This document shows, in pieces, positions 16,379 through 55,882 of a stretch of DNA of 64,000 nt. The DNA is from Zavarzinella sp. (GTDB lineage: Bacteria > Planctomycetota > Planctomycetia > Gemmatales > Gemmataceae). The notes beneath the pieces are model-generated. The model saw only the letters and a program-made list of their open reading frames with translations, did not search any database and was not told the DNA's origin. Each line of letters starts with the position of its first letter. The stretch's first letter is position 1. A program made the translations under genes and the position numbers. The stretch lies in assembly GCA_043744795.1 (NCBI GenBank), contig JAYTTY010000234.1, positions 993 to 64,992 of the forward strand, in the 5' to 3' direction.

Positions 16379-16379
16379 G

Positions 16380-19581: not shown

Positions 19582-19618
19582 CGGTTCGGGTTTCGACACG
19601 GACGTCGGAGAAGTTGAC

Positions 19619-25548: not shown

Positions 25549-25589
25549 AATGCAGGTCATTCAATTCGATCCGCCTTACAATCAACTTC

Positions 25590-27630: not shown

Positions 27631-27642
27631 ACCCGGAACCCC

Positions 27643-29115
27643 ATGTCCCACCCCATCAGCAACGTGCGCCCGGCCCCCGACGCTGTTTTGGCCGACATCG
27701 CGGACTACGTTACGTCGTTCGAAATCAGAAGCGACCTAGCTTTCGAGACGGCGCATTACTGCCTCCTCGACACGCTGGGGTGCGGCTTGGAAGCCTTGGA
27801 ATACCCGGCCTGCACGAAGTTATTGGGGCCGGTCGTGGCGGGCACGGTCGTGCCGAACGGGGCCAAGGTTCCCGGCACGCCGTTCCAACTCGACCCGGTG
27901 CAGGCGGCGTTTAACATCGGGGCGATGATCCGCTGGCTGGACTTCAACGACACGTGGCTGGCGGCCGAGTGGGGCCACCCGTCGGACAACTTGGGCGGCA
28001 TCCTCGCCGTCGCCGACTGGCTGTCCCGCACCGCCGTCGCGGCCGGCAAGCCGCCGTTGGTGATGCGCGACGTGCTGACGGCCATGATCAAAGCCCACGA
28101 AATCCAAGGCTGCCTCGCCTTGGAGAACTCGTTCAACAAGGTGGGCCTCGACCACGTCATCCTCGTCAAGGTCGCGTCCACGGCCGTCGTCGCGCACATG
28201 CTCGGGCTGACGCGGGACGAGATCATCAACGCCGTCTCGCTGGCGTGGGTGGACGGCCAAAGTCTGCGGACGTACCGGCATGCCCCGAACACCGGCTCGC
28301 GAAAAAGCTGGGCGGCCGGCGACGCCACGAGCCGGGCCGTGAAACTGGCCCTCATCGCCCAAGCCGGCGAGATGGGCTACCCGTCCGCGCTCACGGCCAA
28401 GACGTGGGGCTTTTACGACGTGTCGTTCAAGGGCCAGCCGTTCCGCTTCCAGCGGCCGTACGGCAGTTACGTGATGGAGAACGTGCTCTTCAAAATCAGC
28501 TACCCGGCCGAGTTCCATTCGCAGACCGCCGTCGAAGCGGCGATGACGCTCCGCGGCCGCTTGCTCGCCAGTGGAAAATCAGCCCAAGACATTCGCAAGG
28601 TGACGATCCGAACACACGAAGCGTGCCTGCGAATCATCGACAAGACGGGGCCGTTAAACAACCCGGCCGACCGCGACCACTGCGTCCAATACATGATCGC
28701 CGTCCCGCTGATTTTCGGCCGACTGACGGCCGCCGACTACGAGGACGCCGTGGCGCACAACCCGCGCATCGACGCCCTGCGGGCCAAAATGGATTGCGTG
28801 GAAGTCCCCCAATTCACCGCCGACTACCACGACCCGGCAAAACGGTCCATCGCCAATTCGCTCACCGTCGAACTGGCCGACGGCGCCACGCTGACCGAGA
28901 CCGTGGAATACCCCGTCGGCCACCGCTGCCGCCGCGCGGAAGGCATGCCCCTGCTCGTCGAGAAGTTCAAAACCAACTTGGCCCGGCGGTTCGACGCCGC
29001 CCAGCAAGGGGCGATTTTGAACGCCTCGCTCGTCCGGGACAAATTGGAACGGTTGCCCGTCCACGAATACGTGGACTTATACGTCGCCGGTTTCAAGCCC
29101 CTGGCCAGCCACTGA
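27643..29115 (+). CDS. prpD: 2-methylcitrate dehydratase
   Basis: [62 protein letters not shown]. Confidence 0.96.
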
Positions 29116-29144: not shown

Positions 29145-30560
29145 TTACTTCCGAAGTGGCGGCTCTTCCGCCGGCCGTCTGAGCCGTTGCAGGTCCAAGA
29201 CGAAACTCCCGCCGACTCCCGGGCACTCATACGTTCCCAAGCCCCCCGCGCCGCCGTAGAGGTCGCCGCCGCCGTTTTTGATGACCCAGCGTAACCCGCC
29301 GACTTGCGATTCTGAAATACCCGCCGGCTCCGTCTTGTAAGACAGGTTAATCCACTCGTAAATGCCGTAAGCGTCGTGGTCTCGGCCGGGGAAGTCGTCT
29401 TGCGGCGTGTAGACTGGGATCAGTTTGTAGACGATGACGTGGGCCGTGGCCGTGCCGCCGGCGCGGGTTGCGGTGACGGTCTTGAAATCCGCGTCGTTCG
29501 CGGAAATCGCGGAGAACTTCACTTTGTTCTCCGCCCCTTTGCCAATGGCTCCGGAGGAGCCTTGCCATTCGCACGCATCGCCCGCGAACGGAGCCTTGAA
29601 CGTGACGGCCGCCCCTTGCTCGATGAAGAGCGGAAAGGGTGCGTCGCGAAACGTCGTTCCGTCCACGCTGAACCGCAGCGTATTGCCGGTCGCCGACATG
29701 CCGGCCGTAAACTTCGCGTATTTCGCGGCGCGTTCTGTCTCCGCCGCCTCGCGGCGACGGACTTCTTTCATCAGGGTCGCCGTGTTGTCCTTGGGAAAGC
29801 GGTGTTTGGCAAGCAAATCCGCCAGTTCGTCCGTCCGGAACGGCGGCTTGGCGAAGGCGTCCACGAGATACCGTGCCGCGTTGGCGGCGACGTCTTTCTC
29901 TAAGTCCTCGAACGCGCTTTTCTTGCCGTAGGCCTCGGAAAGCTGACGATTCCGTTCAATGGCTTCCTCAAATTTCTTCCGCAGTACGGGATCCTTGACG
30001 GCGCTCGGGCCGACCCCGGTCGGCAGCCCTTCCGGGGGAGACACGTGCATGACCAACGGCCCCGACGGCTTTGGCATCGAGGCATTCTGGACACGGGCGG
30101 CCGTGCAGACCGTCAGCCATCGTTCCGCGCGCGTTTGCCGCTTTTTGACCCACGCCGTGTCGGCCAAATAATCGGAATCGCCGTGCAGGAACAACAGAAG
30201 TTTGGCCACGACCGCCACGGGCTTTTCGGCCGGGGAATCAATGGCGGCGACGGCGAGATCGCGGATGGCCTCGTCGATCCCGGGTTCCGTCGTGCGCGTC
30301 GAATTCATCGCCAAGCAGACGTCCAGAATGACCGGGTAATACGCGGGGCTTTTCTTCGCGAGCCATTCGGCCTTGACCTCCGCACCGAGTAGCCGGAGAC
30401 CGGTCACGTCTTTTTTCGCGCGAAGGGCTTCAATTTTCTTGCGCAGTTCCGTGACGCGGGCGGCGGAGGGTGATTGATCGACATCGCCTTCCGCCGGGGC
30501 CGCGTATTGCGCGGAGCCGAAAATAAGCAGGCACAAAATCACGGTGCGTCTGTTCATCAA
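29145..30560 (-). CDS. Secreted hypothetical protein (helical N-half, beta-rich C-half, possibly truncated)
   Basis: Signal peptide and a 471 aa ORF; no family confidently recognised. Confidence 0.65.
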   Translation of the reverse strand: MMNRRTVILCLLIFGSAQYAAPAEGDVDQSPSAARVTELRKKIEALRAKKDVTGLRLLGAEVKAEWLAKKSPAYYPVILDVCLAMNSTRTTEPGIDEAIRDLAVAAIDSPAEKPVAVVAKLLLFLHGDSDYLADTAWVKKRQTRAERWLTVCTAARVQNASMPKPSGPLVMHVSPPEGLPTGVGPSAVKDPVLRKKFEEAIERNRQLSEAYGKKSAFEDLEKDVAANAARYLVDAFAKPPFRTDELADLLAKHRFPKDNTATLMKEVRRREAAETERAAKYAKFTAGMSATGNTLRFSVDGTTFRDAPFPLFIEQGAAVTFKAPFAGDACEWQGSSGAIGKGAENKVKFSAISANDADFKTVTATRAGGTATAHVIVYKLIPVYTPQDDFPGRDHDAYGIYEWINLSYKTEPAGISESQVGGLRWVIKNGGGDLYGGAGGLGTYECPGVGGSFVLDLQRLRRPAEEPPLRK

Positions 30561-30593
30561 GAGCCACGCTTTCCCGGCGGAATGAGCCGCGCG

Positions 30594-33500
30594 TCAGGAC
30601 AGTGTAGGCCGAATCGGCAAGGGCGGCCGGCCGGTCCCCACGACGGCCGGCCGGGTCGCGACGGTCACCAGGAACATCAGCCCGATCAGCGCGCCCCACA
30701 GTTCCGTCGTCGCGGATGCCGAATCGGACGTTGCCGCCGTCCCCGTTACACGGCCGGCGCGGTCTTCGTTTTCTTGGGCCGGAGCTTCGTCTTCTCCAAG
30801 GGCAACTTCCATCGCGATGGGCTGCTCACGGGGCCGATCTGATTCCACCGGGCCGCTCATGCTTGAAGGCTTCTCGGCCCGGGTGCCTTCGTCCTCAATC
30901 GGCTTGTAAAGCCGCGTGCCGCCCAACTCGCGCTCCGCGTCCGCGCTGGGGGGGAGCGGTTCGTCGGCGGGCGGGGTCTGGGCGGCGGCGTCTTCCGCGG
31001 AGGCGACTTGGACCCCTTCCCGGCCGCTTGGCTCGGCTCCGCCAGCCGCGTCTTCGTCGTCACTACTTTCGCGGGCGTTGCCGTCCGGCAGGCCGCCGGC
31101 GAGCAGTGTCACCACGACGGCCAAGGAATCGCGGCTCAACACCGTCGTCTTGGAGACCACGGGACTTTCGGCCGGGCCGCCGTCCACGATCGGGCCTTGG
31201 GCGGCCGACAGGTCGAAGACGAACAACTGGTCCGACCCGGCCGTGGCCGCCAGGACGCGAAGGCCGGATTGCGTCTCCAACACTTCCAACGCCGTCGGTT
31301 CGGACGGGATGCCGGTGAGGGGCGTCAACTCCGCGGAGAGTTGAAAGGATCCGGCCGCGTCCGGCGTCAGCACTTCGACCGCGCCGTCCCGGAACGCCAC
31401 CAGCCGGCCGTCGGCGAGCGAGTCCAAGGCTCGAATGTTGCCGCCGCCGAAGACGTTGCCGATTGACGAAAGGCCGCCGTCGAGGCCGATTAGGTTGCCG
31501 CCGACGGCCATGACGCCGCCATTCGGCGTGAACACCGGCGGCGACACGGCCGGGCCGGGCAACAGGGTGACTCGCGCACGGGAGTCGTCGAAGTACCCGA
31601 AGCCGCGGTCGGTTATCGCGACCAGACTGCCGCCCGCCGCCCCCGGCCCGCTGAGGCCGTTCGTCACGACCAATTCGGGCCGCCCGTCGCCGTCCAGGTC
31701 GCGGAGCGTCGCGCCGACGGGCGACAGGCCGCCGGCGCGGACGCGCGGGCCGGTGGTCGCCGTCCACCGTCCTTCGGCGAGACGGCCGAACAGCACGGAC
31801 ACGTCGTTGGACCCTTGGTTGGTGACCAGCAAATCTTGGACGCCGTCGCCGTTCACGTCTCCCGCGACGGCGGCCACCGGGTTCGTCCCCACGGCGTAGC
31901 GGACCGGCGCGGCGAAAGCGGGAATGCCGTCGGCCGTCGGCCCGAGCGCGCGGTAGACGGCCACGGCGTTGCCGCCGGTCTCGACGACGATCAAATCGGG
32001 GGACGGGCCGCCGTTCAAGTTCGCCGACAAGCCGTCCCGCGGCGCCTTGAGGTTTTCGCCGAACGTGGTGAGGGTCTTTGTCTTTCCGGCGGCGGACACT
32101 TCTTGCACCGTGGCCGAGCCGGTCTTCTGGTTCACCACCAGCACGCGGCCGTCGGCCGTCGCGGACACGGAGGTTTTCGTGCCCGTCAGCGGCGGCGGCG
32201 GGTCAAACGTGCCGTCCGGGTTGCCGGCCAAACGCAGCACGTCCCCGGCCGGGTTGCCGACGTATAAGTCAATTCGGCCGGCGCCCGCAGTGCGGTGAGC
32301 GGTCAGCCCGGCCGGCGAATCCCCGGCCAGGACTGCTTCCAAGAACTCAAACGTGCCGTCCCCGCGCCCGCGCCAGACCCAGACGTCTCCGGACTCGCGG
32401 TCGAGCATGGCGACATCGGTGACGGCGTCGCCGTCAAACAACCCGCTCACCACCGGGCCGGGCGTGTCGCCGATGACGCCCCCGTGCGTCGTCGGCGTCA
32501 TGCGGCCGGCCGTCGGGTTTTCAAAGCCGCCGCGGCCGTTGTTTTTCAAGACGGCCAACTGGTGCGACCCTTCCAGCAACACCGCGAGGTCGGCCGGCCC
32601 GCCGCCGGTGAAGAACGTCCCGGCCGCGACGCCCGCGGAATGGCGGAGCGAGAACACCGCCCCGGCGGCATCGGCGGCCGCCACGTCAACGCCCGTTGAA
32701 AACCGCGCGACTTCCGCGAACGTGTGGCCCGCGTCATTGTGAAGGACCGTCACGTCTCCGCTCACCGAGGCGTTGACCAACACGTCGAGCCGGCCGTCGC
32801 CTTCCACGTCGCTCAACAGCGCCGCCGATGGGTTGTCGCCGGTCGGCCGGACAATCGGCAAGTCGAAGCGGCCGGGCAAGGCGATGGTGACGCGGTTGTC
32901 GAGCGCGTGCGTCACGAGGAGCGAATCCCGCCCGGACCCGTCGAGGTCGCCGGCCGTGATGGCCGTCGGCAGAAACGGCGTGTTGAACCCTAATCCGTTA
33001 CGGACCAGGCCCGCCGCATTGACGGCGTATTGTGAGATGCGGTAAAGCCCGGCGACCGGCGCCAAGTCGATTGCCGCCACCGCCATCCGGCCGTCGCCCG
33101 TGTTGAACGCGGCGAAGTCGCGGGCCGGGTGGGCGGCGTCGTTCAACGGCCGCGGGGCCGCGAACGGGCGGAGCGCGTCCGGTTGCCCTTTGCGGAACAA
33201 GATCGTTCCCGAGCGGTCGCGGATCACGCTGTCCGTCAGCCCGTCCCCATCCAGATCGACCAAGGTGGGCGAATGCCGGGGCGGGGCCGCCCGCAGCGGC
33301 GAGGCGGCGGTCGGCGAATCGGCGTCGGCGAACGGGCCGAGCAGCACGCCCAGCGACGAGTCGTCCGAATTGGCCGTCACGAGGTCGGGCCGGCCGTCCG
33401 CGTTGAGGTCGGCCGTCGCCAAGTAGATCGGCCCCTTGCCGACCGGGACCGAAAACGAGTTTTGAAAGCGGCCGTCGCCGAGGCCGAGCGCGACGCCGAC

Positions 33501-35765
33501 CGTCCCCGCCTGCACGTCGGTCGTGGCCATGTCTGGCCGGCCGTCGCCGTTCAAATCGGCGACGAGTAATCCGTACGGCCCGTCCCCAGTGATAACGTCG
33601 GCGGCCCGCCGGAAGGCGTGGTCCGCGGTCCCCAAGAAAATCGCGGTCGTGCCGGAAAGGGTGCCGGCCGCCACGTCGGCCATACCGTCCCCGTTGACAT
33701 CACCCACGGCCACCGAAACCGGCAAGGCGTCCGCGCCGACCGCCAACGCGAGCCGCTGGGCGAATGCCCGGCCGCCGGCCGCCACGATCACGCTGACCGC
33801 GCCGGCTCTCTTGTCGGCGGAGAGCAGGTCGGGCCGGCCGTCGCCGTTGACGTCCGCGACCGCGACAGCCAGCGGTTCTTCCCCGACGGCCAAGACGACG
33901 CGATCCGTGAACGTGCCGTCCCCGATGCCCCATAACACACTCAGGGTGCCGTCGCGCTCGTCGGCCGACACGAGGTCGGGGATGCCGTCCAAATCAATGT
34001 CTTGGGCGACGACCGCCTGCGGCCCGGCGCCGACCGCGTACCTTCCGAGCGCCCGAAACGTCCCGTCGCCGTTCCCGAGGAGGACGCTGACGCGGCCGCC
34101 CGCGCGGTCCGCGGTCACCGCATCCAGCCGGCCGTCGTTATTCAAGTCCGCCAAGGAAGCGGACACCGGGGCGCCATCGACCGCGAACGCCCGGCGGGGT
34201 TGGAACGTCCCGTCCCCGTTCCCCAAGGCCACGTCGATCGTCCCCGCGGCGTTGTTCGCCGTGACGGCGTCCGGAAAGCCGTCGCCGTCCACGTCCCCCA
34301 CGGCGACCGCGTCCGGCTCCGGCCCGACGAGGAACGCCCCGGCCGTCAGAAATGTGCCGTCCCCGTTTCCGAGCAGCAGGCGAAGCTGGCCCGGGGCGCC
34401 ATTGGCCACGACGAGGTCGGGCGCCCCGTCTCGATTGAAGTCGGCCGCCGCCACGGCCGTCTGGTCGGAGCCGGCGGCGAGGCCGCGGCGCGGGGCGAAC
34501 GTCCCGCCGCTCGTCCCCAAGAACACGTCGAGCGTGTCGTTCCGGTTCGCCCCGATCACGTCGGCCGTGCCGTCGCGGTTGACGTCCGTGACCACGACAT
34601 CTGCCGGGGCCAAGCCGCCGGCCAAGGCCGGCAATTTCGAGAGAGAGCCGTCGGGCAACCCTTTCAACACCGTGAAGGAATTCGCCGCCTGATCGGCCGT
34701 GACCACGTCCGGCCGGCCGTCGCCGGTCACGTCGGCCACCGTGAGGGCGGCCGGCCCGGAGCCGACTGTGTAAACGGTCGGCTCCCGCGCCGGGTCGAAT
34801 GTCGCGCCGCCGGGCAACACCTTGACGGCACCCGATTGCTTCGCGGCCCACACCAAATCGGCCCGGCCGTCGCCGGTCACGTCGGCGACGGCGACGGCCG
34901 ACGGCTCGAACGCCTCCGGAATTTCCACGGCGGCGGCGAATCCGCCGTTGCCGTCGCCGCGCAGGTAGTCAAGCGTCTGGTCTTCCCCGTTGGCGGCGAC
35001 GAGGTCGGTACGGCCGTCGCCGTTGAGATCGCCCGCCGCCAATGCGACCGGGCCGCCGCCGACGGGAAAGTCTTGGCGGTCGAGGAAGGGGCCGCCTTGG
35101 GCAGCCGCGAGGAACACGCTCACCGAATTGGCGGGCCCCGCGTTGGCGGTGACGAGGTCCGGCCGCCCGTCGGCGTTCACGTCCGCGATCAGCACGGCCG
35201 TCGGCTGGTCGCCGGCCGGGAGGGCGAAATCCCGGCGGGCGCGGAACGTCCCGTCGCCGTTCCCGAGCCAAACACCCACTGTATTCGTGACCCGGCTGAC
35301 GGCGGCCAAGTCCGGGAACTGGTCGCCGTTCAAGTCGCCGGCGGCCACCCCCTTGGGATTTCCGCCGGCGTCCAACGGCCCGGCCGGGGAGACGGCCTCC
35401 GTGACGTGCGCGGAAAGTTGGTACGGGGAATCGGCCCGCCCGGCCGACACGCCGAGGCGGTAGTCGCCGGGGGCCACGTGAAGGGTGACGCGCCCGCCGA
35501 GTGCATTTCCGCCGGCGCCTTCGGCCGTCATCAGGACGGTGTCATCGGCCCGCATGATCGTCAAGCGCAGGCCGTCAGTGGACCCGACGCCGGGCGTCGC
35601 CTCGGCCGACAGGACGCCGGCTTGGTCCACGTGCAGCGGGTGCCACACGGGCGCGCCGGCCGTGGGCACGCGGCCGGCCGCCGACAAGTCGGCGGCCGGC
35701 TCGTCCCGCCGTTCGAGCGATTCGAGCGCGGGCCGGGGTCGTCGTTTTCGCCGGTCGTGTCCCAT
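30594..35765 (-). CDS. Large FG-GAP/VCBS repeat surface protein (1723 aa)
   Basis: LESLERRDEPA N-terminal motif, 14 canonical D[LV]NxDGxxD repeats plus degenerate ones, acidic linker, hydrophobic C-terminal segment. Confidence 0.92.
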   Translation of the reverse strand: MGHDRRKRRPRPALESLERRDEPAADLSAAGRVPTAGAPVWHPLHVDQAGVLSAEATPGVGSTDGLRLTIMRADDTVLMTAEGAGGNALGGRVTLHVAPGDYRLGVSAGRADSPYQLSAHVTEAVSPAGPLDAGGNPKGVAAGDLNGDQFPDLAAVSRVTNTVGVWLGNGDGTFRARRDFALPAGDQPTAVLIADVNADGRPDLVTANAGPANSVSVFLAAAQGGPFLDRQDFPVGGGPVALAAGDLNGDGRTDLVAANGEDQTLDYLRGDGNGGFAAAVEIPEAFEPSAVAVADVTGDGRADLVWAAKQSGAVKVLPGGATFDPAREPTVYTVGSGPAALTVADVTGDGRPDVVTADQAANSFTVLKGLPDGSLSKLPALAGGLAPADVVVTDVNRDGTADVIGANRNDTLDVFLGTSGGTFAPRRGLAAGSDQTAVAAADFNRDGAPDLVVANGAPGQLRLLLGNGDGTFLTAGAFLVGPEPDAVAVGDVDGDGFPDAVTANNAAGTIDVALGNGDGTFQPRRAFAVDGAPVSASLADLNNDGRLDAVTADRAGGRVSVLLGNGDGTFRALGRYAVGAGPQAVVAQDIDLDGIPDLVSADERDGTLSVLWGIGDGTFTDRVVLAVGEEPLAVAVADVNGDGRPDLLSADKRAGAVSVIVAAGGRAFAQRLALAVGADALPVSVAVGDVNGDGMADVAAGTLSGTTAIFLGTADHAFRRAADVITGDGPYGLLVADLNGDGRPDMATTDVQAGTVGVALGLGDGRFQNSFSVPVGKGPIYLATADLNADGRPDLVTANSDDSSLGVLLGPFADADSPTAASPLRAAPPRHSPTLVDLDGDGLTDSVIRDRSGTILFRKGQPDALRPFAAPRPLNDAAHPARDFAAFNTGDGRMAVAAIDLAPVAGLYRISQYAVNAAGLVRNGLGFNTPFLPTAITAGDLDGSGRDSLLVTHALDNRVTIALPGRFDLPIVRPTGDNPSAALLSDVEGDGRLDVLVNASVSGDVTVLHNDAGHTFAEVARFSTGVDVAAADAAGAVFSLRHSAGVAAGTFFTGGGPADLAVLLEGSHQLAVLKNNGRGGFENPTAGRMTPTTHGGVIGDTPGPVVSGLFDGDAVTDVAMLDRESGDVWVWRGRGDGTFEFLEAVLAGDSPAGLTAHRTAGAGRIDLYVGNPAGDVLRLAGNPDGTFDPPPPLTGTKTSVSATADGRVLVVNQKTGSATVQEVSAAGKTKTLTTFGENLKAPRDGLSANLNGGPSPDLIVVETGGNAVAVYRALGPTADGIPAFAAPVRYAVGTNPVAAVAGDVNGDGVQDLLVTNQGSNDVSVLFGRLAEGRWTATTGPRVRAGGLSPVGATLRDLDGDGRPELVVTNGLSGPGAAGGSLVAITDRGFGYFDDSRARVTLLPGPAVSPPVFTPNGGVMAVGGNLIGLDGGLSSIGNVFGGGNIRALDSLADGRLVAFRDGAVEVLTPDAAGSFQLSAELTPLTGIPSEPTALEVLETQSGLRVLAATAGSDQLFVFDLSAAQGPIVDGGPAESPVVSKTTVLSRDSLAVVVTLLAGGLPDGNARESSDDEDAAGGAEPSGREGVQVASAEDAAAQTPPADEPLPPSADAERELGGTRLYKPIEDEGTRAEKPSSMSGPVESDRPREQPIAMEVALGEDEAPAQENEDRAGRVTGTAATSDSASATTELWGALIGLMFLVTVATRPAVVGTGRPPLPIRPTLS

Positions 35766-35783
35766 GCGGAAGCCTGTCGGCGG

Positions 35784-47700: not shown

Positions 47701-50700
47701 CCCGTCACGAGGACGGCCCCGCGGCCGACCACGGCCACCGCCTCTCCGGTGTCCTTGGAGCCGCTGCCGAACGAGTGGGCCGAGACAAACGCCCCGGCGG
47801 CGTCCAGCTCGCTGACGTAAATGTCTTCGTTGACGCCGACAGCGGCCCGCCAAGCGGCGCCGGGGCCGGGGTCGAAGTCGGCCGTGCTCTTGAACGAGCC
47901 GGCCGTATGCACATGCCCGGCCGCGTCGAGCGCGATCCCGGCTCCTTGGTCCGTGTCCGTCCCGCCGAGCGGCTTCGCCCAAGCGTAATTCCCGGCGGCG
48001 TCCAGCTTGCTCACGTACGCATCGGCGTCGCCGGCGCTGGTCAAGGGGGCCGCCCCCGCGCCCGGGTCAAAGTCGGCCGTGCCGCGGAATTGGCCCGTCG
48101 TATACACGTTCCCTTGGGCGTCGGCCGCGACGGCGGCCCCCGCGTCGTTGGCAGCGCCACCGAGTTGCTTGGCCCAGACGTAGTTGCCGGCGGCGTCCAG
48201 CTTGCTCACGTACGCATCCGAGAAGCCGCCGGCAGTCATGAGCATGGCGGCGGCGGCGCCGGGGTCGAAATCGACGGGGCCGGTGAATGTGCCGGTGGTA
48301 ACGACGCCCCCCAACCCGTCCAGAGCCAGCCCGGTTCCGGCGGCCGTGCCAGCCCCGGTCATCGCCTTGGCCCAGACGTAGTTGCCGGCCTGATCGAGCT
48401 TGCTAACGAAGGCGGCGTCCCCGACCGTACCAGGGGTCAAGGTGGCCGTGCCGGCCCCCGGGTCGAAGTCACCCGCCGCGGCAAAAGAGCCAGTGGTGTA
48501 GACGTTTCCCGCCGAGTCCGCGGCGATGCCGCGGCCGGAGCCGGTCCATGACTTGGCCCAAACGTAGTCGCCGTTCTGATCCAACTTGCTCACGAAGACG
48601 TTCTGGCCGAGGCCGGTCAGCGGGGCCGCCGCCCCGGCCGGGTCGAAGTTGACGGCGCCGGAAAAGACGCCGGTGGTGTACACGTTGCCGGCCGCGTCCA
48701 CGGCGACGGCGGCGGCCTCGTCGGACGACGCCCCGCCGAACACCCTTGCCCACACGAGCGCCCCCGCGGTCGTGTACTTGGCCACGTAGGCGTCGTGCCC
48801 GCCGGCGGCGCCCAACTGGTACACGCCGACGGACGGATCGAAATCGACCGTGCTGGAGAGGAACCCGGCCATATACACATTGCCGGCCGCGTCCACCGTG
48901 ACGGCCCGGCCTTCCTCGAAAGAAGACCCCCCTGCCATGGCCGCGAACCCGAACGCCGGCGCGGCCCCTGTCAGGCCGGCGTCTTGGTGGTACGAGGAGA
49001 GGGCGTCGCCCACATTGTCGAAGGGGGAGTCGTTGAGGGAAAACTTGGCCGTCCGGCCGCCGACGCCGGCGTCGCTGTCCCGCGTGAAGTCCGCCCCTTG
49101 GTCTTGGGCCGTGAAGCCGAGGCCGGGTGGCGCCCGGAATTGGACCCGGTATTTGCCGTCGGTCGGGCTGGCCGGCGGCTCGATGAAGAGGTACGTCCCC
49201 GCCGGGCCGGTGACTTGCGTGCCGAGAGACTTGTCGTCGGAGTCGAGCAATTCGGCGACGGCCCCGGCGACCGCCGCTTCGCCGTTGTCGTACAGGCCGT
49301 CGCCGTCGGTGTCGGCCCACACGCGGCCGCTGGCGCTCTGTTGAGCGAGTTTGAGGACGAAGCCGTCTGTGGCCCCGTTATTGGTCAATGTGTGGTCGCC
49401 GGCGGGCAAGTCGAAGTCGAGGTCCACGGGCCCGGTGAAATACCCGGCGACGACCACGCCGCCGAACGGGTCAGTCGCCACCCCGTCGCCTTCGTCGAAG
49501 CCGCCGCCGCCCGTCCGCCCGGCCCAGACGTATTGGCCGGCCGCGTCCCATTTAATGAGGTAAGCGTCTACGGAGCCGAGGCTGTTCAAAACCTGCGTGC
49601 CGGCCGTGGGGTCGGCGTCAATCGTGCCGGAGAAGTAGCCGGTGGTGTAGATGTTCCCGCCGACATCGACCGCGATGCCGGCCCCGCCGGAATGTTCGAG
49701 CGACGAGCCGGCGACGGACTTGGCCCAGACGAAATGGCCGGCCGCGTCCAGTTTGCTGACGAACGGGTTTTCGTACCCGACGTTGGTCAGGGTGAAGGTC
49801 CCTGGGCTGGGGTCGAAGTCGGCCGTGCCATTGAACTCGCCAGTGGTGTAGACGTTCCCGGCGCCGTCCACGGCGACCGCGGTCCCGACGACGCTGACGG
49901 TATTGCCTGTCTGCCCGAGCGGGCTGGCCCAAAGCAGGTTGCCGTCCGGGTCCAATTTGCTGACGTAGCCGTCCGTGTACGCGGCGGTCCGGTTTTGGAC
50001 GCCGGGGCCGGGGTCGAGGTCCGCCGTGCCCGTGAAGTATCCGGTGGTTACGGCGTTCCCTTGCGCGTCCAACGTGACGCCGTAGGCCCGGTCGTGCGTC
50101 GCCCCGCCCCACCGCTTGGCCCAGCGGAAGTTGCCGGCCGCGTCCAACTTGGCCGCGAAGGCGTCGTCCCCGCCGGCGCTGGTTAGGTTGTAAGCGCCGG
50201 CCCCTGGGTCGAAATCGCCCGTGCCCCGGAAGTAGCCGGTGACGACCACGGTGCCGGCGAAATCGACCGCGATTCCAGTCCCGAAGTCCTCAGCCGTTCC
50301 GCCCAGCGCCTTGGCCCAAACGAAGTTGCCCGACGAGTCCAGCTTGCTGACGTAGGCGTCCCACGCCCCGTTGCCGATCAACGTATAAACGCCGGCGCTC
50401 GGGTCGAAGTCGCCTTGGCCGAAGAGGGTTCCGACGGTGTACACGTTCCCTTGGCCGTCGAGTGCAATTCCAGCCGCGCCGTCCCCACCCAACGCCTTCG
50501 CCCAGACCAGCGCCCCGGCCGGGGTGTACTTGGCCACATAGCCGTCCGAGCCGCCGTCGCTGGTCAGGTTGGTCACGACGGCGGACGGGTCGAAATCGAC
50601 GGTCCCGGAAAAGTTGCCGGTCACATACGCGTAGCCGGCGCCGTCGGTGGTGACGGCTCGGCCCGCGTCGTCCGAGCCGCCGCCGATGTCCAAGGCGTAC

Positions 50701-50819: not shown

Positions 50820-51103
50820 CAGGGCAACTCCGGGCGGCACGCGGGCATATCGGCTGTGTCGGCGACGGCCGCCCACCAAAGCATAAGTCGGAACAACATC
50901 TGAGGGCTTTTGGGTCTCGTCGTGATGTTCCGCGAATCAATTGAGGCGCGCCGGGAAGCCGTCCCCGGTCAGCGCGCCCCGTCCCCGCGTGCGAATCTCG
51001 GGTAATATACCCATTTACTCACATTCGTTCGACGGCAGAATCGAAAAAGTCGGCCGGAATTACCCCGTTGATGGGCGGCGCGATCATACGCGATTCTCGA
51101 CCG

Positions 51104-54100
51104 TTACCACCCGTGACTTCGGGCCACCCGCGCGACGTCGGCGTGCTTCAGCAATTCCCGCAGAGTCGCGTCCTTTTCGACTTGGTCGCGCCAGAAGGCC
51201 GCCCGGCCGTCCGGCGGGACCAAGCCGGCGGCCCGCATGAGCAGTTCCGCCGCGTGTTCTTGGTAGAGCAGGGCCGTCGCCACGTCGCCGGCGGCCGGCC
51301 CGAGCCGGGCGGCGCGGGCGTACACGCTCGCCAAGTTGCACAGCAGCGTTGATGTGGGTTTATCCGCGTGACGAAGGGACTTCTCCGCGGTCGCCACGGC
51401 TTCGGCCCCCTTGCCTTCCAGCGACAGAATCTGCGCCCGGCCGCACAGGGCGTCCGCGAGGTCGGGCTTCGCGGTCAGCGCCGCGTCGAAGTCGGCCCGC
51501 GCCAAGGGCAGCGATTGGGCCTGCAAGTAGGCCCAGCCGCGGTAGTTCAACACCTGCGGATCGTCCTTCAACTTCAACGACTGCGAGTAGGCCAAGGCCG
51601 CCGGCGAATATTCCCGCCGGGCGGCGTGGATCAACCCGCGCGCCCGGTAAAGCTCCGCGTCCGGCGCTTTGGCGAGGCACTTGTCCAACGCCCTGCCCGC
51701 CTCGGCATGTTTGCCGAGGGCCAAAAGCGTTTCGGCCCGCTGCCGGTGGGCCGGTACGAAGTCATCAACCACCATTAAGGCCGCGTCGTACTCGGCCAAG
51801 GCGCCGGCGAGGTCTTTTGCGGTGTGCTTCAGGTAACCCAACTCGACATGAGCGCTGGCCAGCCAACGGTCGCCAAGCCGCCCGCCCGCTTCAATAGCCT
51901 TTTCATAGTCGCGCCGCGCCAGGGCATCGGCGTTTGCCTTGCGGTGGAACTGAGCGCGGGTGTAGTAAAGCTGCCCGTCCGCCGGCTGGGCCGCGATCAC
52001 GCGGTCCAGCGCGCCCAACGCGGCCGGGTCGTCGCCGAGCCGGCGGTAAATTTCGGCCAAGTTGAGGTCGGCCTGATAGCCCCCGGCCGGGCCGATGGCG
52101 GCCGCCGCGGCGAAGGCGTCGCGGGCGTCGGCCCACTGCTCGCGGATCGACGCCAGTCGGCCGCGGGTCATGTGCATGAGATACCGGGCCGCCGGCTCAG
52201 CCGCGTCGCCGGCGGCCGACAAGTCCGCCGTGGCGCCCTCGACGTTCCGCATCTCGACGCGGGCCTGCGCCCGCAGCACGCGGGGCCAGACGGCGTCCGG
52301 CCGCTGCGTCACGCACGTCGTCAGCCACGCATCGGCCAAGGCCCACTGTTGCTGCCGGAGGTGGCACAAGCCTTGCAAGTACGGCGGCCAAAAGTAGCCC
52401 GGCTCCAGCCGCACCGCCTCCTCGCACCGGCGGACCGCGGCGGCGAATTTGTCGTTCCGGTAGTCGGCCACCGCCGTCAAAAAATGGTCCAAGGCCGAGG
52501 CCGGCGGCCGGGCGGCCAGAGCAAGGTCCGCTTTCGCGGCGTCGGCATCGCCGAGCGCGGCGGCCAACGCCGCCCGGCGCGCGTACAGCGCGTTGGGGAC
52601 GGGCACTTGGTGCGCCGCGGCGACGGCTTCCGCGGCGGTCAGCGCCCGGACCGCCGTCTTCCCTTCTTCGGCTTCCGCCCAAACGAACAGCGCTTCGCAA
52701 CACCACCGGGCGGTTTGCCGGCGCTGCGCGTCCGACTGAAAATAACGGGCGACCGCCGAGAGCGGCTTGTCCCCAGCGCCGGCCGTGTCGATGTGGAACG
52801 CGGCCAGCGCAGCCGGGGCCAGCTTGGTGATGGCGAGGCGGTCGCCCGCCCGGCCGGCCGCGTCCACGCTCAAATGACGGAAGAGCAGTTCGTCCCGGTC
52901 CCGGCCCAACTGGGCGACCGCCGCCTGAACACGGTGCCGCGCGCCTTGATCCGTCGCCAAGTCACCTGCTTGGCGCCGCACGTCGAGCAGTCGAGATTCG
53001 ACCTCGGCCCGCAGTGTCTCGTCACCGGGGTCGCGCGACGCGGCGAGGACGGCCACCGCCTGTTCCATCGCGCCCGCGGCTTCCGCGAGATGTCGCGTTG
53101 CCGCGGGGGAGTCGTCGCGGGCCAAGGCCTGTCGGCCGTCCGCTTCCGCTTCGCGGCCGCGCACCCACAAGTCGTCGGCTTGACGGCGGCGTTCGCCCTG
53201 TTGCCGTAAGACGCGCGTCCGCTGCTCGGCGTAGAGGCCGTAAATCCCCGCCCCGAGGCACCCGAGGCAGACTGTGAGGAATACCGTGCCGGCCAAGGCG
53301 GGCCGGCGGCGCGCCCACTTGATCCCACGTTCCAGCAGGCCCACCGAGCGGGCCAGAATCGGCTCCGCGGCGAGGAAGCGGCGCAAGTCTTCCGCGAGGT
53401 CGGCGCAGCCGGGGTATCGTTTCGCGGGGTCTTTCTCCAGCGCCTTCAGGCAGATCGTTTCGAGGTCGCGGGGGATATTCCGCCGCAGTCTGCGGGGGGG
53501 CGACACCGGCTCGTGCTGGTGCAGGTACATTTGCTGGGCGATGCCGCCGGCGAACGGCGTCCGGCCCGTCAGCATTTGGTAGAGGGCGCACCCGAGACTG
53601 TACTGGTCGCTGGCGGCGATGCCGTTCCCGTCGATTTGTTCCGGCGCCATGTAGGCCGGCGTCCCCATTGCCGTGCCTTCCTGCGTCAGCTTTTCGTCCC
53701 CCGCCGCCGCGCGGGCCGCCAAGCCGAAGTCCAACAGCAGTGGCTCGCCGGCCTCGTCCACCATCACGTTTTGCGGCTTCACGTCCCGGTGGACGACCCC
53801 CTGCGAGTGGGCGTAAGCCATCGCCGCCGCGAGCAGTCGCGTGACGCGGGCGGCGTCGGCGGCAGGCATCGGCGTCCCGCCGGCCGCGTGGCCTTCGATC
53901 ACCGCCTCCAAGGTCTTGCCGGCGATGTACGCGGAGGCGATGTAGCAGCGGTCGTCCTGTTGCCCCGCCTCGAACAGCGGGACGATGTTCGGGTGCCGCA
54001 GGTTCCCCGCCGCCTTGGCTTCCCGAAAAAACCGCTCGCGTCGCTCGGCCGTGCCGAGCGTCCCCGGCTTGGCGAGTTTCAGCGCCACGTCGCGGTCCAA

Positions 54101-54559
54101 CTGCGGGTCGTAGGCTTGGTAAACCTCGCCGAACGCCCCCTCGCCGAGTTTCTTCCGAAGCACAAACCGGCCGACGCGGGGTTGAAACGGCGCCGTCGTC
54201 CCCATTCCCGGCCCTTCCGCGCCGGGGACGTAAGTGATCGTCTCGCGGTCGGACAGCCGGGCCGGTGGCAAGTCGATTGTCACCGAACCCGACACTGGCA
54301 CAACGGGGGTTCGCCCGTTGGTACTCGCATGAGTCGGCAGATCCAGTGTGACGGCCCCTGGGGGAAGCGCCATTGGCGTTTGGCCGTTGGTCCCCGGACG
54401 GGTCGCCAAGTCGAGTGTGATCGCGCCGGCCGGGACGGCGGGCGTTTGGCCGTTGGCCCCGGCGTTGGTCGGCAGGTCGAGCGTCGCCGGCAGTAGCGGG
54501 CCGCCGCCGCCGAAGACCAGAGTCTCCTTGGCGTTCGGCGGGCGCGTCGAACCGGACAT
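51104..54559 (-). CDS. Membrane Ser/Thr protein kinase with C-terminal TPR array and N-terminal Thr-rich tandem repeats
   Basis: LGEGAFGEV, VALK, HRDVKPQN, DFG, GTPAYMAPE; TM segment ALAGTVFLTVCLGCLGAGIYGLY; many TPRs. Confidence 0.95.
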   Translation of the reverse strand: MSGSTRPPNAKETLVFGGGGPLLPATLDLPTNAGANGQTPAVPAGAITLDLATRPGTNGQTPMALPPGAVTLDLPTHASTNGRTPVVPVSGSVTIDLPPARLSDRETITYVPGAEGPGMGTTAPFQPRVGRFVLRKKLGEGAFGEVYQAYDPQLDRDVALKLAKPGTLGTAERRERFFREAKAAGNLRHPNIVPLFEAGQQDDRCYIASAYIAGKTLEAVIEGHAAGGTPMPAADAARVTRLLAAAMAYAHSQGVVHRDVKPQNVMVDEAGEPLLLDFGLAARAAAGDEKLTQEGTAMGTPAYMAPEQIDGNGIAASDQYSLGCALYQMLTGRTPFAGGIAQQMYLHQHEPVSPPRRLRRNIPRDLETICLKALEKDPAKRYPGCADLAEDLRRFLAAEPILARSVGLLERGIKWARRRPALAGTVFLTVCLGCLGAGIYGLYAEQRTRVLRQQGERRRQADDLWVRGREAEADGRQALARDDSPAATRHLAEAAGAMEQAVAVLAASRDPGDETLRAEVESRLLDVRRQAGDLATDQGARHRVQAAVAQLGRDRDELLFRHLSVDAAGRAGDRLAITKLAPAALAAFHIDTAGAGDKPLSAVARYFQSDAQRRQTARWCCEALFVWAEAEEGKTAVRALTAAEAVAAAHQVPVPNALYARRAALAAALGDADAAKADLALAARPPASALDHFLTAVADYRNDKFAAAVRRCEEAVRLEPGYFWPPYLQGLCHLRQQQWALADAWLTTCVTQRPDAVWPRVLRAQARVEMRNVEGATADLSAAGDAAEPAARYLMHMTRGRLASIREQWADARDAFAAAAAIGPAGGYQADLNLAEIYRRLGDDPAALGALDRVIAAQPADGQLYYTRAQFHRKANADALARRDYEKAIEAGGRLGDRWLASAHVELGYLKHTAKDLAGALAEYDAALMVVDDFVPAHRQRAETLLALGKHAEAGRALDKCLAKAPDAELYRARGLIHAARREYSPAALAYSQSLKLKDDPQVLNYRGWAYLQAQSLPLARADFDAALTAKPDLADALCGRAQILSLEGKGAEAVATAEKSLRHADKPTSTLLCNLASVYARAARLGPAAGDVATALLYQEHAAELLMRAAGLVPPDGRAAFWRDQVEKDATLRELLKHADVARVARSHGW

Positions 54560-54640
54560 GGCGTGGACCCGATTAACAGGGGGACAAGCGCCAGTGTACC
54601 AGCAATCAGCCGGTGCGCCAAACCGATGGCATGCTTGGAG

Positions 54641-55882
54641 TTAGCCCAACGCCTTTGCAAACGCCGCCACGTCCGCGTGCCGGTCTTCCGGCCGGAGGGC
54701 CATCGCCTTGGCGACGGCGGCGGACATCGCGGGCGGGGTGTCCGGCCGGAGGCGGGTGGCCGGCGGGGCGGTTTCCGTCAAGAGGCGGCGGAACAGGTCG
54801 GCGTGGTTCGTCCCGGCCGGGTGCGGGAATTCCCCGGTGAGCAGGTAATAGATCGTCGCCCCGGCCGAGTATTGGTCCCCGGCCGGCTTCACCGTGCGGA
54901 AGTCCCGCACTTGTTCCGGCGGCATGAACGCGGGCGTCCCCATCGCTTGGCCGGACAGCGTCAGCCCGCTGAGGGGCGAGTCTTGGTAGGCGCGGGCCAA
55001 GCCGAAGTCGGCCACTTTCACGGTCCCGTCGTCGGCCACCAACACGTTCGCCGGCTTGATGTCCCGGTGGATGTACCCGGCTCGGTGGGCGTGGGCGAGG
55101 CCGGCCAACATGCCGGCCGCGATGCGGCGCACGTCGGCGATCGGCAGCCCCCCGGCCTTCTTCGCCTCCTTCACGGCCGTCGATGCGTCTCGGCCGCGCA
55201 CGAGTTCCATCACGAAAAAAAGGATGCCGTTCTCCTCGCCGAATTCTTCGAACCCGACGATGTTCGGGTGCGTCAGCCGCCGCAAGATGTCGGCCTCCCG
55301 AATGAACCGGCCGACCACCGCCGCGGTCGGGGTGACGGCCGGCTTGATCGTCTTCAAGGCCACGACCCGCCCGTCCGACTCGCGCACGGCCCGGTACACG
55401 TCCCCCATCCCGCCGCCGCCGAGCCGGTCCGCGATGGCGTAGCCGCGGAACAAGGGGGGCCGGCCGGCGGCGGACACTTCCCCGGTCGCCTCGCCCGAGG
55501 GCAACTGGGTGACGGTGGTCGGCTCTTCCGTGCGGGCCGCGGCGCCCGGCCCCGGCAGTGATTGCGTAATAGCCTCCCCGTCTTGCCCGGCCAACGTCAC
55601 CCGGAGGGTGGACGTTCCGACTTCGATGAGATCGCCGTTGCGCAGGGGGGACTCGCGGAGCTTTTTGCCGTTGACCAAAGTGCCGTTGCGACTGCCGAGG
55701 TCAGTCAGATGCGCCAGTGGCGGGTTGACTTCCACCAGAAAGTGGACGCGGGAAAGGTAGTCGTCGTGCGGCAGGCTGAAGGCGGCGTCCGCCGACCGCC
55801 CCACGAGGAACGTCGAGTGACGGTCGAACGAGAACGACGTTCCCAGCAGCGGTCCGGCGACCACGTCCAAGGTGATGGCCAT
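54641..55882 (-). CDS. FHA-domain Ser/Thr protein kinase, soluble
   Basis: FHA motifs VGRS, SRVH, DLGSRNGT; kinase motifs LGGGGMGDV, VALK, HRDIKPAN, DFG, GTPAFMPPE. Confidence 0.95.
   Translation of the reverse strand: MAITLDVVAGPLLGTSFSFDRHSTFLVGRSADAAFSLPHDDYLSRVHFLVEVNPPLAHLTDLGSRNGTLVNGKKLRESPLRNGDLIEVGTSTLRVTLAGQDGEAITQSLPGPGAAARTEEPTTVTQLPSGEATGEVSAAGRPPLFRGYAIADRLGGGGMGDVYRAVRESDGRVVALKTIKPAVTPTAAVVGRFIREADILRRLTHPNIVGFEEFGEENGILFFVMELVRGRDASTAVKEAKKAGGLPIADVRRIAAGMLAGLAHAHRAGYIHRDIKPANVLVADDGTVKVADFGLARAYQDSPLSGLTLSGQAMGTPAFMPPEQVRDFRTVKPAGDQYSAGATIYYLLTGEFPHPAGTNHADLFRRLLTETAPPATRLRPDTPPAMSAAVAKAMALRPEDRHADVAAFAKALG

Follow-up and report, generated by a model that had tools for sequence, protein, structure and literature searches.

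A receptor-type Ser/Thr kinase gene (g2) and a gene for an FG-GAP giant (g4) form, on comparison of gene order, the only widely conserved core of the locus described here, as a pair that travels across Planctomycetota, and the adjacent genes for an FHA-kinase (g1) and a 5011-aa giant (g3) are additions, seen in one clade. We see about an even chance that this core and these clade additions make up a nested signalling module. The fifth gene, g5, is, on the same comparisons, a neighbour outside the conserved block. Within the window, that is, the whole stretch of 64,000 nucleotides that was analysed, the genes are located as follows:

54641-55882, minus strand: g1, 413 aa, cytoplasmic FHA plus Hanks-type Ser/Thr kinase
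51104-54559, minus strand: g2, 1151 aa, receptor-type Ser/Thr kinase
35784-50819, minus strand: g3, 5011 aa from the conserved ATG, putatively exported giant
30594-35765, minus strand: g4, 1723 aa, FG-GAP/VCBS protein
29145-30560, minus strand: g5, 471 aa, secreted protein with two modules, family uncharacterised

The five genes are co-directional, as proposed in the first-pass annotation, and its gap lengths were also confirmed: from g1 to g5 they are 81, 284, 18 and 33 bp, the second one measured to the ATG start of g3 (an alternative start at an upstream TTG would give 5031 aa). Plus-strand genes bracket the block, with prpD at 27643-29115 and a nitroreductase gene at 56020-56613, and third-position GC is 0.85–0.89 in g1 to g4 and 0.76 in g5.

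In a small sample of about 20 loci, many of them metagenome fragments without taxonomy, g2 relatives (27–77% identity) are directly followed by a g4-like gene in 14 of the 17 further loci whose downstream sequence could be read (L002, P0004, P0013, P0009/L003, L088-L093, where L091 is the same as L085, L095-L097 and probably L098); for counting, the window, Zavarzinella and L087 are taken as a single evolutionary event. The remaining three comprise Zavarzinella, where g3 is interposed, L087, which ends inside a g3-like gene, and L094, which has no FG-GAP gene. Gaps between g2 and the FG-GAP gene are 22–128 bp where gene ends were called (L002, P0004, P0013 and P0009/L003 loci), and when two g4 homologs were taken as starting points instead, each proved to be preceded by a kinase-TPR gene, at distances of 3 and 30 bp. 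Among 80 control loci with generic kinases, an FG-GAP match occurred in two, in neither case after the kinase, and the C-terminal domain of g2 in none. These controls are the loci from a contig scan with the full-length g2-family alignment, which did not retrieve Zavarzinella and gave generic kinases only, because its patterns were derived from the kinase domain. A DUF4915/TIGR03032 gene often accompanies the g2 and g4 core, and was seen in three distant cassettes; it is encoded nowhere in the window, which may thus hold a reduced version of the cassette.

Beyond the core, Zavarzinella formosa keeps the g1-g2-g3-g4 block, with identities of 75, 69, 56–60 and 58%, respectively, and its flanks contain no homolog of other window genes within 10 kb on either side. 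The linkage of kinase and giant exported protein, which the first-pass annotation had proposed to look for in relatives, is kept. The arrangement g1-g2-g3 recurs on contig L087, so that g1 and g3 occur together in the window, Z. formosa and L087. The closest relative of the window, L002 (g2 77.5% identical over aligned positions), has neither g1 nor g3, and g4 follows g2 directly; g3 is likewise absent from every distant cassette.

These absences suggest that g3 may be a passenger, an independent giant adhesin/protease gene, functionally unconnected to the kinases, whose arrival between g2 and g4 in a single lineage would leave only these two as a true pair. Its lack in the closest relative and in at least 14 distant cassettes fits this explanation, and giants with an export motif are numerous in Gemmataceae, with 52 motif proteins in Tuwongella (PMC8567305). 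However, three lineages (window, Zavarzinella and L087) whose g2 proteins differ by 29–37% all have a g3-type gene after g2, g3 co-occurs with g1, and it sits after a sequence block that precedes g4 in L002. On balance, we find it somewhat unlikely that g3 is a mere passenger. The block in question is:

50985-51061, minus strand: promoter-like block TTTTTCGATTCTGCCGTCGAACG-N17-GGTATATT, 43 bp after the g2 stop

It could be aligned in four loci (window, Zavarzinella, L087 and L002), preceding g3 in the window and g4 in L002. It is unique within the window, with 0.02 occurrences expected by chance, and over 1.6 Mb of compared loci the strict pattern was found in the window, L001 and L002 only, the L087 copy being one base off; a comparison with Rfam gave no match. 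A promoter function is suggested by its AT-rich −10-like hexamer amid roughly 70% GC DNA; scans for sigma-70 promoters and intrinsic terminators gave no more matches than shuffled sequence, or fewer, and returned nothing in the intergenic gaps. The block suggests that g3 and g4 are transcribed apart from g1 and g2 and, since what stands before g4 in L002 stands before g3 here, g3 would share the upstream signals of g4.

The first-pass annotation had read all five genes as one operon-like system, a two-kinase relay coupled to a co-exported adhesion, carbohydrate-binding and proteolysis apparatus of g3 and g4 (and possibly g5), under either direction of control. The common strand and short gaps agree with it, as do the persistence of the g1 to g4 block in Zavarzinella amid unrelated flanks and the 18 bp that separate g3 from g4, both with an export motif. 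Nevertheless, a single five-gene unit is contradicted by the absence of g5 from the Z. formosa block and of g1 and g3 from L002 and all distant cassettes; the conserved promoter-like block also separates g2 from g3, and the matches that bear on carbohydrate binding are all sub-threshold. We thus regard that model as quite improbable, and the earlier interpretation as partly supported overall.

g5 has a signal-peptide-like N-terminus (MNRRTVILCLLIFGSAQYAAPAEG) and, rather than the orphan that it was taken for, has 763 homologs at E ≤ 1e-3, including a full-length one with 56% identity. Its two modules (aa ~10-280 and ~292-465) also occur separately, and the 10 kb to either side of the Zavarzinella block contain no homolog of g5. 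Searches of Pfam, NCBIfam and PADLOC gave no match, and the single-sequence AlphaFold model (pLDDT 45) was too poor for a fold search.

The core kinase, g2, shows the kinase, membrane helix and TPR order that had been assigned to it, with these features:

54266-54484, minus strand: tail at the N-terminus, carrying four T(L/I)DL(P/A) repeats (aa 26, 48, 71 and 94), from a regular expression and sequence reading
53414-54160, minus strand: kinase domain (Pkinase, E = 1.6e-48, 165.9 bits against a cut-off of 31.7)
53231-53299, minus strand: single TM helix (aa 421-443), from hydropathy
51107-53230, minus strand: predicted extracytoplasmic coiled/TPR domain of ~700 aa with three invariant Cys

Its kinase motifs (LGEGAFGEVY, VALK, HRDVKPQN and DFGLA) are intact and of Hanks type, and the TPR matches cover aa 800-973 (Pfam TPR_2, E = 3.8e-12). 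The C-terminal 750 aa align colinearly with at least 42 proteins. A single hydropathy peak between kinase and TPR, with the latter predicted to be periplasmic, corresponds to the architecture of Planctomycetota receptor kinases, for which a periplasmic TPR is a published topology (PMC11032199). Gemmataceae have ~100–140 Ser/Thr kinases per genome, many with periplasmic TPR or WD40 arrays (PMC11032199), and g2 resembles them in its cytoplasmic Pkinase, one TM helix and C-terminal TPR predicted to be periplasmic. That account treats the kinases singly and without partners ('neighbor', 'operon' and 'FG-GAP' are absent from its text), unlike the situation here, in which a subfamily delimited by its colinear periplasmic domain of 750 aa keeps the FG-GAP giant as its neighbour.

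The features of the second kinase, g1, are:

55616-55807, minus strand: FHA domain (PF00498, E = 3.8e-14, 53.3 bits against a cut-off of 20.7)
54680-55441, minus strand: kinase domain (PF00069, E = 3.2e-45, 155 bits against a cut-off of 31.7)

Pfam matches and motif reading agree in identifying g1 as a Hanks-type Ser/Thr kinase with an FHA domain and no TM helix. The residues for phospho-Thr binding are present (VGR, aa 27-29; SRVH, 44-47; NGT, 66-68), and the kinase motifs are intact (LGGGGMGDVY in the G-loop, VALK, HRDIKPAN and DFGLA). Orthologs show 75% identity in Zavarzinella and 80.5% across the last 185 aa on L087; no record identical to the exact g1 sequence was found. FHA-kinase homologs adjoin large sensor kinases in all three further loci that were looked up, and one of them overlaps a g2-family gene by 14 bp. 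Separately, the match lists of g1 and g2 suggest about eight more candidate pairs of FHA-kinase and large kinase.

FHA domains recognise phospho-Thr, and the four repeats in the g2 tail fit the pT-x-x-L consensus for FHA binding. TLDL repeats occur in all four g2-family members with an FHA-kinase directly upstream (window, Zavarzinella, L087 and P0026) and in none of the six members without an FHA gene within reach; L002 is an exception, with TIDL repeats and no adjacent FHA-kinase. The repeats are, therefore, candidate phospho-Thr docking sites for the FHA domain of g1, as deduced from their sequence and distribution.

Both kinases are also matched by the PADLOC models PD-T4-6 and mad6 (E down to 3e-83), and by NCBIfam MAD6 with 141.9 and 158.5 bits, under its cut-off of 460, which would be consistent with a kinase of an anti-phage or conflict system of the PD-T4-6 or Mad6 type. 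We nevertheless rejected this explanation, and consider it highly implausible, because the matches involve only the generic Hanks kinase domain (aa 128-412). Further, g4 and g5 have no PADLOC match, no methylase, nuclease or other defence gene lies nearby, the partners that are conserved belong to the exported repeat proteins, and a TM helix and a periplasmic domain are present in g2.

The second member of the core, g4, is organised as follows:

35697-35729, minus strand: N-terminal export motif ALESLERRDEP, of the LxLExLExRxxP type
35391-35648, minus strand: PPC-like domain, assigned by eye
31566-35348, minus strand: FG-GAP repeats (FG-GAP_3, PF13517, E = 2.7e-127, 415.8 bits, 17 stretches)
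30711-31148, minus strand: acidic low-complexity stalk
30657-30701, minus strand: C-terminal TM, followed by a 17-aa tail (30597-30647)

An additional match to PF01839 (201 bits) agrees with its assignment to FG-GAP/VCBS repeat proteins, and the protein contains 14 motifs of Ca-binding type (D-x-D-x-DG-type), spaced by ~49 aa. Orthologs were found in P0122 (70% identity) and Zavarzinella (58%), with no match among PDB sequences at E ≤ 1e-5. At the N-terminus, the family has in common a basic stretch and, after it, EWLE[DP]RTLL; in many members the C-terminus bears a TM helix.

For g3, the features are:

50712-50747, minus strand: N-terminal export motif ILLQELEDRTNP, fitting LxLExLExRxxP (PMC8567305) with one mismatch
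40770-50702, minus strand: about six alternating SBBP-propeller and SdrD_B modules (SBBP, E = 1e-65; SdrD_B, E = 2e-52)
39255-40772, minus strand: PPC-like repeats (PPC, E = 2e-15)
38478-39227, minus strand: C11 peptidase (Peptidase_C11, E = 2e-33; PF03415, 116.7 bits against a cut-off of 25.8)
38880-38900 and 38751-38774, minus strand: C11 catalytic His (FWDHGGG) and Cys (AFDACFMG), respectively
35787-37382, minus strand: beta-rich C-terminus with weak ConA-like/DUF1080 matches

The catalytic His and Cys align to the clostripain structures 9cip (clostripain) and 6n9j, and g3 has the features of a C11 peptidase with an intact predicted His-Cys dyad. Three closer assignments were discarded: clostripain ortholog (TIGR02806, 54.5 against a cut-off of 550), MSCRAMM SdrD adhesin, whose full architecture comprises an A region, B repeats, SD repeats and an LPXTG anchor and of which g3 has the B-type domain alone (PF17210, 176.8 bits; NF012181, 77.9 against 2500), and a T9SS sorting domain, whose match (TIGR04183, 39.3 bits) overlaps PPC and was rejected because it is internal (~aa 3650-3700 of 5011) and not at the extreme C-terminus. 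At the C-terminus, the matches to GH43_C2 (20.4 against 22.7 bits) and 3keto-disac_hyd (18.6 against 26.8) are sub-threshold, no PDB sequence matched at E ≤ 1, and the single-sequence AlphaFold (AF2) model, all-beta with pLDDT 37, was too poor for a fold search. Hence, the domain labels of the first-pass annotation stand for FHA, kinases, TPR, SBBP, SdrD_B, PPC, C11 and FG-GAP, with sub-threshold matches alone for the lectin. The Zavarzinella ortholog has 5012 aa and 56–60% identity.

Both giants carry the Planctomycetes N-terminal export motif, g3 with one mismatch to the consensus (the stretch reads RRAPRILLQELEDRTNP), and RRKRRPRPALESLERRDEP of g4 is the sole strict match in the six-frame window. 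NCBIfam, searched at E ≤ 1 with the first 80 aa of g3, g4 and three g4 homologs, gave no LEPR-XLL match, even though GEWLERRTLL can be read in L086, the short model being possibly filtered or absent. The motif (RRLxxExLExRxLLA / LxLExLExRxxP; Studholme 2004, as cited in PMC8567305), which is expected behind a basic stretch and inside the first ~40 residues, is associated with giant Planctomycetes surface proteins, is present in 8 of the 10 longest proteins of Tuwongella (PMC8567305) and matches the N-terminus of the g4 family. g3 fits this class in its 5011-aa size and repeat content; the combination of SBBP, SdrD_B, PPC, a C11 domain with intact active site and a ConA-like tail, encoded after a receptor kinase, is not described in that paper.

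Our best reading, which we back and doubt in equal measure, is that the partner receptor kinase reads a beta-propeller giant, which is exported and anchored at its C-terminus, and relays to the FHA-kinase. The gene linkage that it builds on is observed; the mechanism, which we infer, would run as follows. g4, and here also g3, would be exported to the envelope or surface, where the periplasmic TPR of g2 would bind g4 and report its state (for instance, contact with a ligand or a surface, assembly or damage). In turn, g2 would phosphorylate the four T-L-D-L repeats of its own N-terminal tail, and the FHA domain of g1 might dock on these pT-x-x-L sites, g1 relaying to cytoplasmic targets. In a broader form, which we hold to be unlikely as it stands, kinase-TM-TPR plus FG-GAP giant (plus DUF4915) would be a widespread undescribed outside-in system of bacteria, in which a dedicated receptor kinase reads an integrin-like beta-propeller receptor anchored in the membrane at the cell surface, with FHA-kinase docking at pT-L-D-L and giant surface clients such as g3 in some lineages.

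Control could also run inside-out, with the kinase governing export, anchoring or assembly of the export-motif giants and sensing no g4; the TPR of g2 would be a dock or chaperone for emerging g4 and g3, and the kinases would gate the process, as PpkA/Fha1 do in type VI secretion. TPR domains often serve as secretion chaperones or docks, and g2 shows weak matches, below cut-off, to the SycD/LcrH and PorW TPR models. The g2-g4 linkage data are identical to those behind our best reading, and the gene right after the kinase always encodes an export-motif protein, mostly g4-like, and g3-like in the window, Zavarzinella and L087. Yet secretion-machinery genes are absent from the block and its flanks, and the NCBIfam TPR matches of g2 are far under their cut-offs; we regard inside-out control as rather doubtful.

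Returning to the propeller giant read by a partner kinase, several known systems share parts of this composition. In the Pseudomonas aeruginosa type VI pathway, PpkA is the receptor kinase, Fha1 the FHA reader and TagR the periplasmic partner; the common elements are a Hanks kinase in the membrane that has a periplasmic domain, a separately encoded periplasmic or surface partner and an FHA reader of phospho-Thr. Unlike PpkA/Fha1, however, the FHA here forms one protein with a second kinase, a giant of 1700–2450 aa takes the place of the partner and the periplasmic domain is TPR and not vWA. The T6SS threonine-phosphorylation pathway itself, in which PpkA/Fha/PppA are encoded together with T6SS core genes, was discarded, with no T6SS genes among the window genes scanned and TagH FHA at 28.5 against 120.

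Likewise, in mycobacteria phosphorylated Thr sites on Hanks kinases recruit FHA domains (PknB with FhaA and FhaB), the extracellular sensor of PknD is a beta-propeller, and PknG (as cited in PMC11032199), which has a TPR, receives its signal from a separate sensor protein (PknG-GlnH-GlnX). The Hanks kinase with FHA, the propeller sensor and the TPR are thus shared, but in our locus the propeller is a separate anchored giant, the TPR is predicted to be periplasmic and the candidate docking repeats are found in the tail at the N-terminus.

A further likeness is to the integrin alpha subunits of eukaryotes, with their outside-in kinase signalling, and by analogy the module would consist of an integrin-like co-receptor, a receptor kinase and an FHA relay. 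Integrin alpha has a seven-blade FG-GAP propeller, thigh and calf domains, a TM helix, a short tail and a beta-subunit partner. g4 has FG-GAP repeats with Ca-binding-type motifs, a stalk, a C-terminal TM and a short tail, and is encoded beside a kinase; it differs in having at least 14–17 FG-GAP repeats and a partner kinase that is itself a membrane receptor. Scans found no thigh/calf or integrin-beta domain, and this is an analogy and not membership of the integrin alpha family.

The first-pass annotation knew of no characterised system of such composition, and we likewise found none in the searchable literature: searches on DUF4915, TIGR03032 and FG-GAP with Gemmataceae returned nothing, and LEPR-XLL retrieved unrelated papers only. 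That literature (PMC11032199, PMC8567305) assigns the kinases of Gemmataceae no partners, signals or targets. One kinase subfamily now gains a partner at the gene level, through its FG-GAP giant neighbour, a recurrent FHA-kinase pairing and a plausible docking motif, and a protease-bearing 5011-aa surface giant is placed in a regulatory context. In all, what planctomycete kinases sense becomes a question open to concrete experiment. If the integrin-like reading is true, it would represent an independent bacterial invention of adhesion signalling through receptor and kinase; a widespread outside-in cassette, if true, would give the expanded planctomycete kinome its first component on the partner or ligand side.

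The window is rich in GC (64–74%) and its best protein matches are in Zavarzinella formosa (Gemmataceae); its contig occurs in sediment metagenomes. The first-pass annotation had described five co-directional genes, and five minus-strand ORFs are indeed present, separated by the claimed gaps of 81, 284, 18 and 33 bp when the conserved ATG at 50819 is used as the start of g3. Together with the elements around them, they are:

54641–55882, minus strand: g1, FHA-kinase (413 aa)
51104–54559, minus strand: g2, kinase-TM-TPR receptor kinase (1151 aa)
50985–51061: conserved block of ca. 60 nt, TTTTTCGATTCTGCCGTCGAACG-N17-GGTATATT, 43 bp past the g2 stop codon
35784–50819, minus strand: g3, giant protein (5011 aa)
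30594–35765, minus strand: g4, FG-GAP giant (1723 aa)
29145–30560, minus strand: g5, secreted protein (471 aa)
25479–29115, plus strand: prpB, prpC and prpD (methylcitrate cycle), converging on g5; ordinary metabolism that marks the end of the block
Flanks of 29145–55882, plus strand: prpD and a nitroreductase gene, one per side, bracketing the block

The g1 product combines an FHA domain with a Hanks kinase, and a reading of its sequence finds all catalytic and phosphothreonine-binding residues. In g2, the kinase domain is followed by one TM helix (aa 421–443) and a coiled, TPR-containing region of ca. 700 aa. The g3 product contains about six modules, each of an SBBP propeller and an SdrD_B domain, PPC-like repeats and a C11 peptidase, in which alignment to clostripain structures puts His (FWDHGGG) and Cys (AFDACFMG) at the positions of the catalytic dyad; its beta-rich C-terminus gave ConA-like matches, all of them sub-threshold. 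Finally, the g4 product has 17 FG-GAP stretches and an acidic stalk, and it ends in a TM helix and a tail of 17 aa.

The five genes had been interpreted as a single phospho-signalling and adhesin/protease system, a view that is only partly supported and that we have substantially revised: the linkage of g2 with g4 is real, whereas the five-gene picture is not, with g5 missing from the Z. formosa block and both g1 and g3 from locus L002. The entire 750-aa extracytoplasmic part of g2 aligns colinearly with at least 42 proteins (28–41% identity), and this kinase therefore defines a distinct subfamily. Gene tables for three of its members (P0004, P0013 and P0009, the last in locus L003) place an FG-GAP giant of 1895–2252 aa directly downstream of the kinase, with gaps of 22–97 bp. 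A metagenome scan with patterns from the g2 periplasmic domain yielded 12 usable loci, ten of which carry an FG-GAP gene immediately 3′ of the kinase; of the other two, one is L087, a relative described below, and the other, L094, contains a weak member of the g2 family and no FG-GAP gene. Likewise, searching from the g4 side retrieved two homologues of ca. 2450 aa, each preceded by a kinase-TPR gene, at distances of 3 and 30 bp. As controls, a genome scan supplied 80 loci of generic kinases, of which none had a g2-type periplasmic domain and two had any FG-GAP match, downstream of the kinase in neither. These counts indicate that the g2-g4 linkage is old and widespread.

In three distant cassettes the FG-GAP giant is directly followed by a DUF4915/TIGR03032 gene (ca. 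358 aa; NCBIfam model E 1e-134), making up a three-gene unit:

L003, 14834–15907: DUF4915/TIGR03032 gene
L085, 17358–18434: DUF4915/TIGR03032 gene
L086, 17365–18447: DUF4915/TIGR03032 gene

The window encodes no copy of this family, of which we found no mention in the searchable literature. Two unrelated loci have a gene with an adenylate/guanylate-cyclase domain beside their kinase/FG-GAP cassette, L002 on its upstream side (2–1531) and L003 on its downstream side (16039–17850).

Close relatives show which genes travel with this pair. Z. formosa, which is in culture, retains g1-g2-g3-g4 in unchanged order, with identities of 75, 69, 56–60 and 58%, respectively; the block is conserved and its surroundings are not, because no homologue of the remaining 27 window genes lies within 10 kb on either side, and DUF1501 and PSCyt/PSD genes come after g4 in place of g5. 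Locus L087 carries the C-terminal 185 aa of a g1 orthologue (80.5% identity), followed by a g2 homologue (ca. 64%) and, 400 bp further, by an export-motif giant with SdrD_B/SBBP domains that shows 42–49% identity to g3 repeat segments. The g2 most similar to that of the window is found in L002 (77.5% over aligned positions, versus 71.2% for Zavarzinella), where the order is cyclase gene, g2 and g4, with a 127 bp gap and a g4 identity of 69–71%, and where neither g1 nor g3 is present. From the gene content of these three loci, g1 and g3 are either both present or both absent while g2 and g4 are constant. Thus, g1 and g3 co-occur with the g2-g4 pair in a clade-specific manner among the ca. 20 loci examined, many of which are metagenome fragments and the closest of which are not phylogenetically independent.

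The synteny expected in relatives therefore holds for g1-g4 in Zavarzinella, and widely for g2-g4, and fails for g5, which we treat as a neighbour of the block. This gene has a lower third-position GC (0.76) and no homologue within 10 kb of the Zavarzinella block; its product has a signal-peptide-like N-terminus and no curated-family match. It belongs to an uncharacterised, sizeable family (763 homologues) and consists of a helical N-module (aa ca. 10–280) and a beta-rich C-module (aa ca. 292–465), each also found separately, the latter in proteins reaching 1422 aa, among which one has a transglutaminase core. Ten homologues scanned had no Pfam domain, except for one with a transglutaminase core.

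The TTTTTCGATTCTGCCGTCGAACG-N17-GGTATATT block after g2 is a conserved element shared by the window, Zavarzinella, L087 and L002; in the last of these it lies ca. 30 nt ahead of the g4 start codon. It occurs once in the window, where 0.02 copies would be expected by chance, and across the fetched loci (1.6 Mb) the strict pattern matched only the window, L001 and L002, the L087 copy being one base off. There was no match in Rfam, and generic scans for promoters and terminators were of no help. The AT-rich, TATATT-like hexamer of the block, in DNA of ca. 70% GC, suggests a promoter. If so, g3-g4 would be transcribed separately from g1-g2, and g3 would sit in a slot between g4 and its ancestral upstream signals. 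A passenger role of g3 in this slot is plausible, if less likely than not; its co-occurrence with g1 speaks against it. The 3–30 bp gaps of distant cassettes are too short for a promoter.

FHA-kinases of ca. 410–430 aa abound in Planctomycetes (2681 matches at E<1e-30, mostly with 45–53% identity over the full length), and a large sensor kinase, kinase-WD40 or kinase-TPR, adjoins them in all three loci looked up. The FHA-kinase P0299 overlaps the g2-family gene P0026 by 14 bp; L100 (5364–11260) has the order kinase-WD40, 427-aa gene and FHA-kinase; and in L101 (1128–6022) kinase-WD40 and FHA-kinase are divergent, 116 bp apart. About eight further pairs are hinted at by contigs of equal length in both match lists. 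Such pairs may represent a general two-kinase module in Planctomycetota. A PP2C-type Ser/Thr phosphatase (448 aa; 9318–10664, minus strand), accompanied by a TPR gene (8496–9314, plus strand), lies ca. 40 kb from the kinases, unlinked to the block, and is a possible counter-enzyme.

The N-terminal tail of g2 contains four T(L/I)DL(P/A) repeats, and T-x-x-L is a classical phosphopeptide preference of FHA domains. Four g2-family products with an FHA-kinase directly upstream carry the repeat (window, Zavarzinella, L087 and P0026), as do that of L002, without one, and three proteins of unknown genomic context. It is missing from the kinases of L003, L085, L086, L089, L090 and L092, whose fetched flanks contain no FHA gene. 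This distribution, which represents two independent events at most, is suggestive of repeats that go with an adjacent FHA-kinase.

The g2 kinase domain must be cytoplasmic, which places the TPR domain in the periplasm, the published topology for such kinases (PMC11032199); three invariant cysteines in this domain are consistent with that location. Members of the g4 family start with a basic stretch followed by EWLE[DP]RTLL, and many end in a TM helix and a short charged tail. The export motif of Planctomycetes, RRLxxExLExRxLLA / LxLExLExRxxP, is matched by both g4 (ALESLERRDEP) and g3 (ILLQELEDRTNP); it is present in eight of the ten longest Tuwongella proteins and in proteins detected in the Tuwongella proteome (PMC8567305). 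In six frames, the strict motif occurs once in the window, at g4. Both g3 and g4 carry export signals, g4 also an anchor signal, and the catalytic motifs at the locus are intact.

Elsewhere in the window (18082–20923, plus strand), the genes for a Chlam_PMP/beta-helix/Big_3_5 protein (499 aa) and a putative BBP7 beta-barrel porin (453 aa) share 20 bp and could encode a passenger-plus-barrel surface pair. An 899-aa protein (22726–25425, plus strand) combines G8 and CEMIP beta-helix domains, which are more familiar together from animal proteins that degrade hyaluronan. Additionally, two ORFs that each satisfy the codon-bias filter, MoCF_biosynth (10766–11728, minus strand) and Fe-ADH (11322–12575, plus strand), overlap by ca. 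400 bp; the start of one of them has probably been misplaced.

We infer a mechanism in which g4, and g3, would be displayed in the envelope and g4 contacted by the g2 TPR domain; g2 would phosphorylate its own TLDL repeats, on which the g1 FHA domain would dock and relay the signal. The main rival reverses the direction, with the kinase gating export or assembly, and is equally compatible with the linkage data. A role of the kinases in defence is unlikely because their PADLOC matches are restricted to the kinase domain. Among known systems, the nearest functional parallels are the type VI secretion pathway PpkA/Fha1/TagR, integrin-kinase signalling in eukaryotes and, in mycobacteria, PknB/FhaA, PknD and PknG-GlnH-GlnX; the locus belongs to none of these. 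The kinds of components are already known (Hanks kinases, FHA, FG-GAP, C11 and Planctomycetes export-motif giants), and we found no description of the conserved cassette, or of its FHA-kinase and g3 extensions, in the searchable literature. In all, the locus is a variant of receptor-kinase signalling in which a giant protein is the conserved partner.
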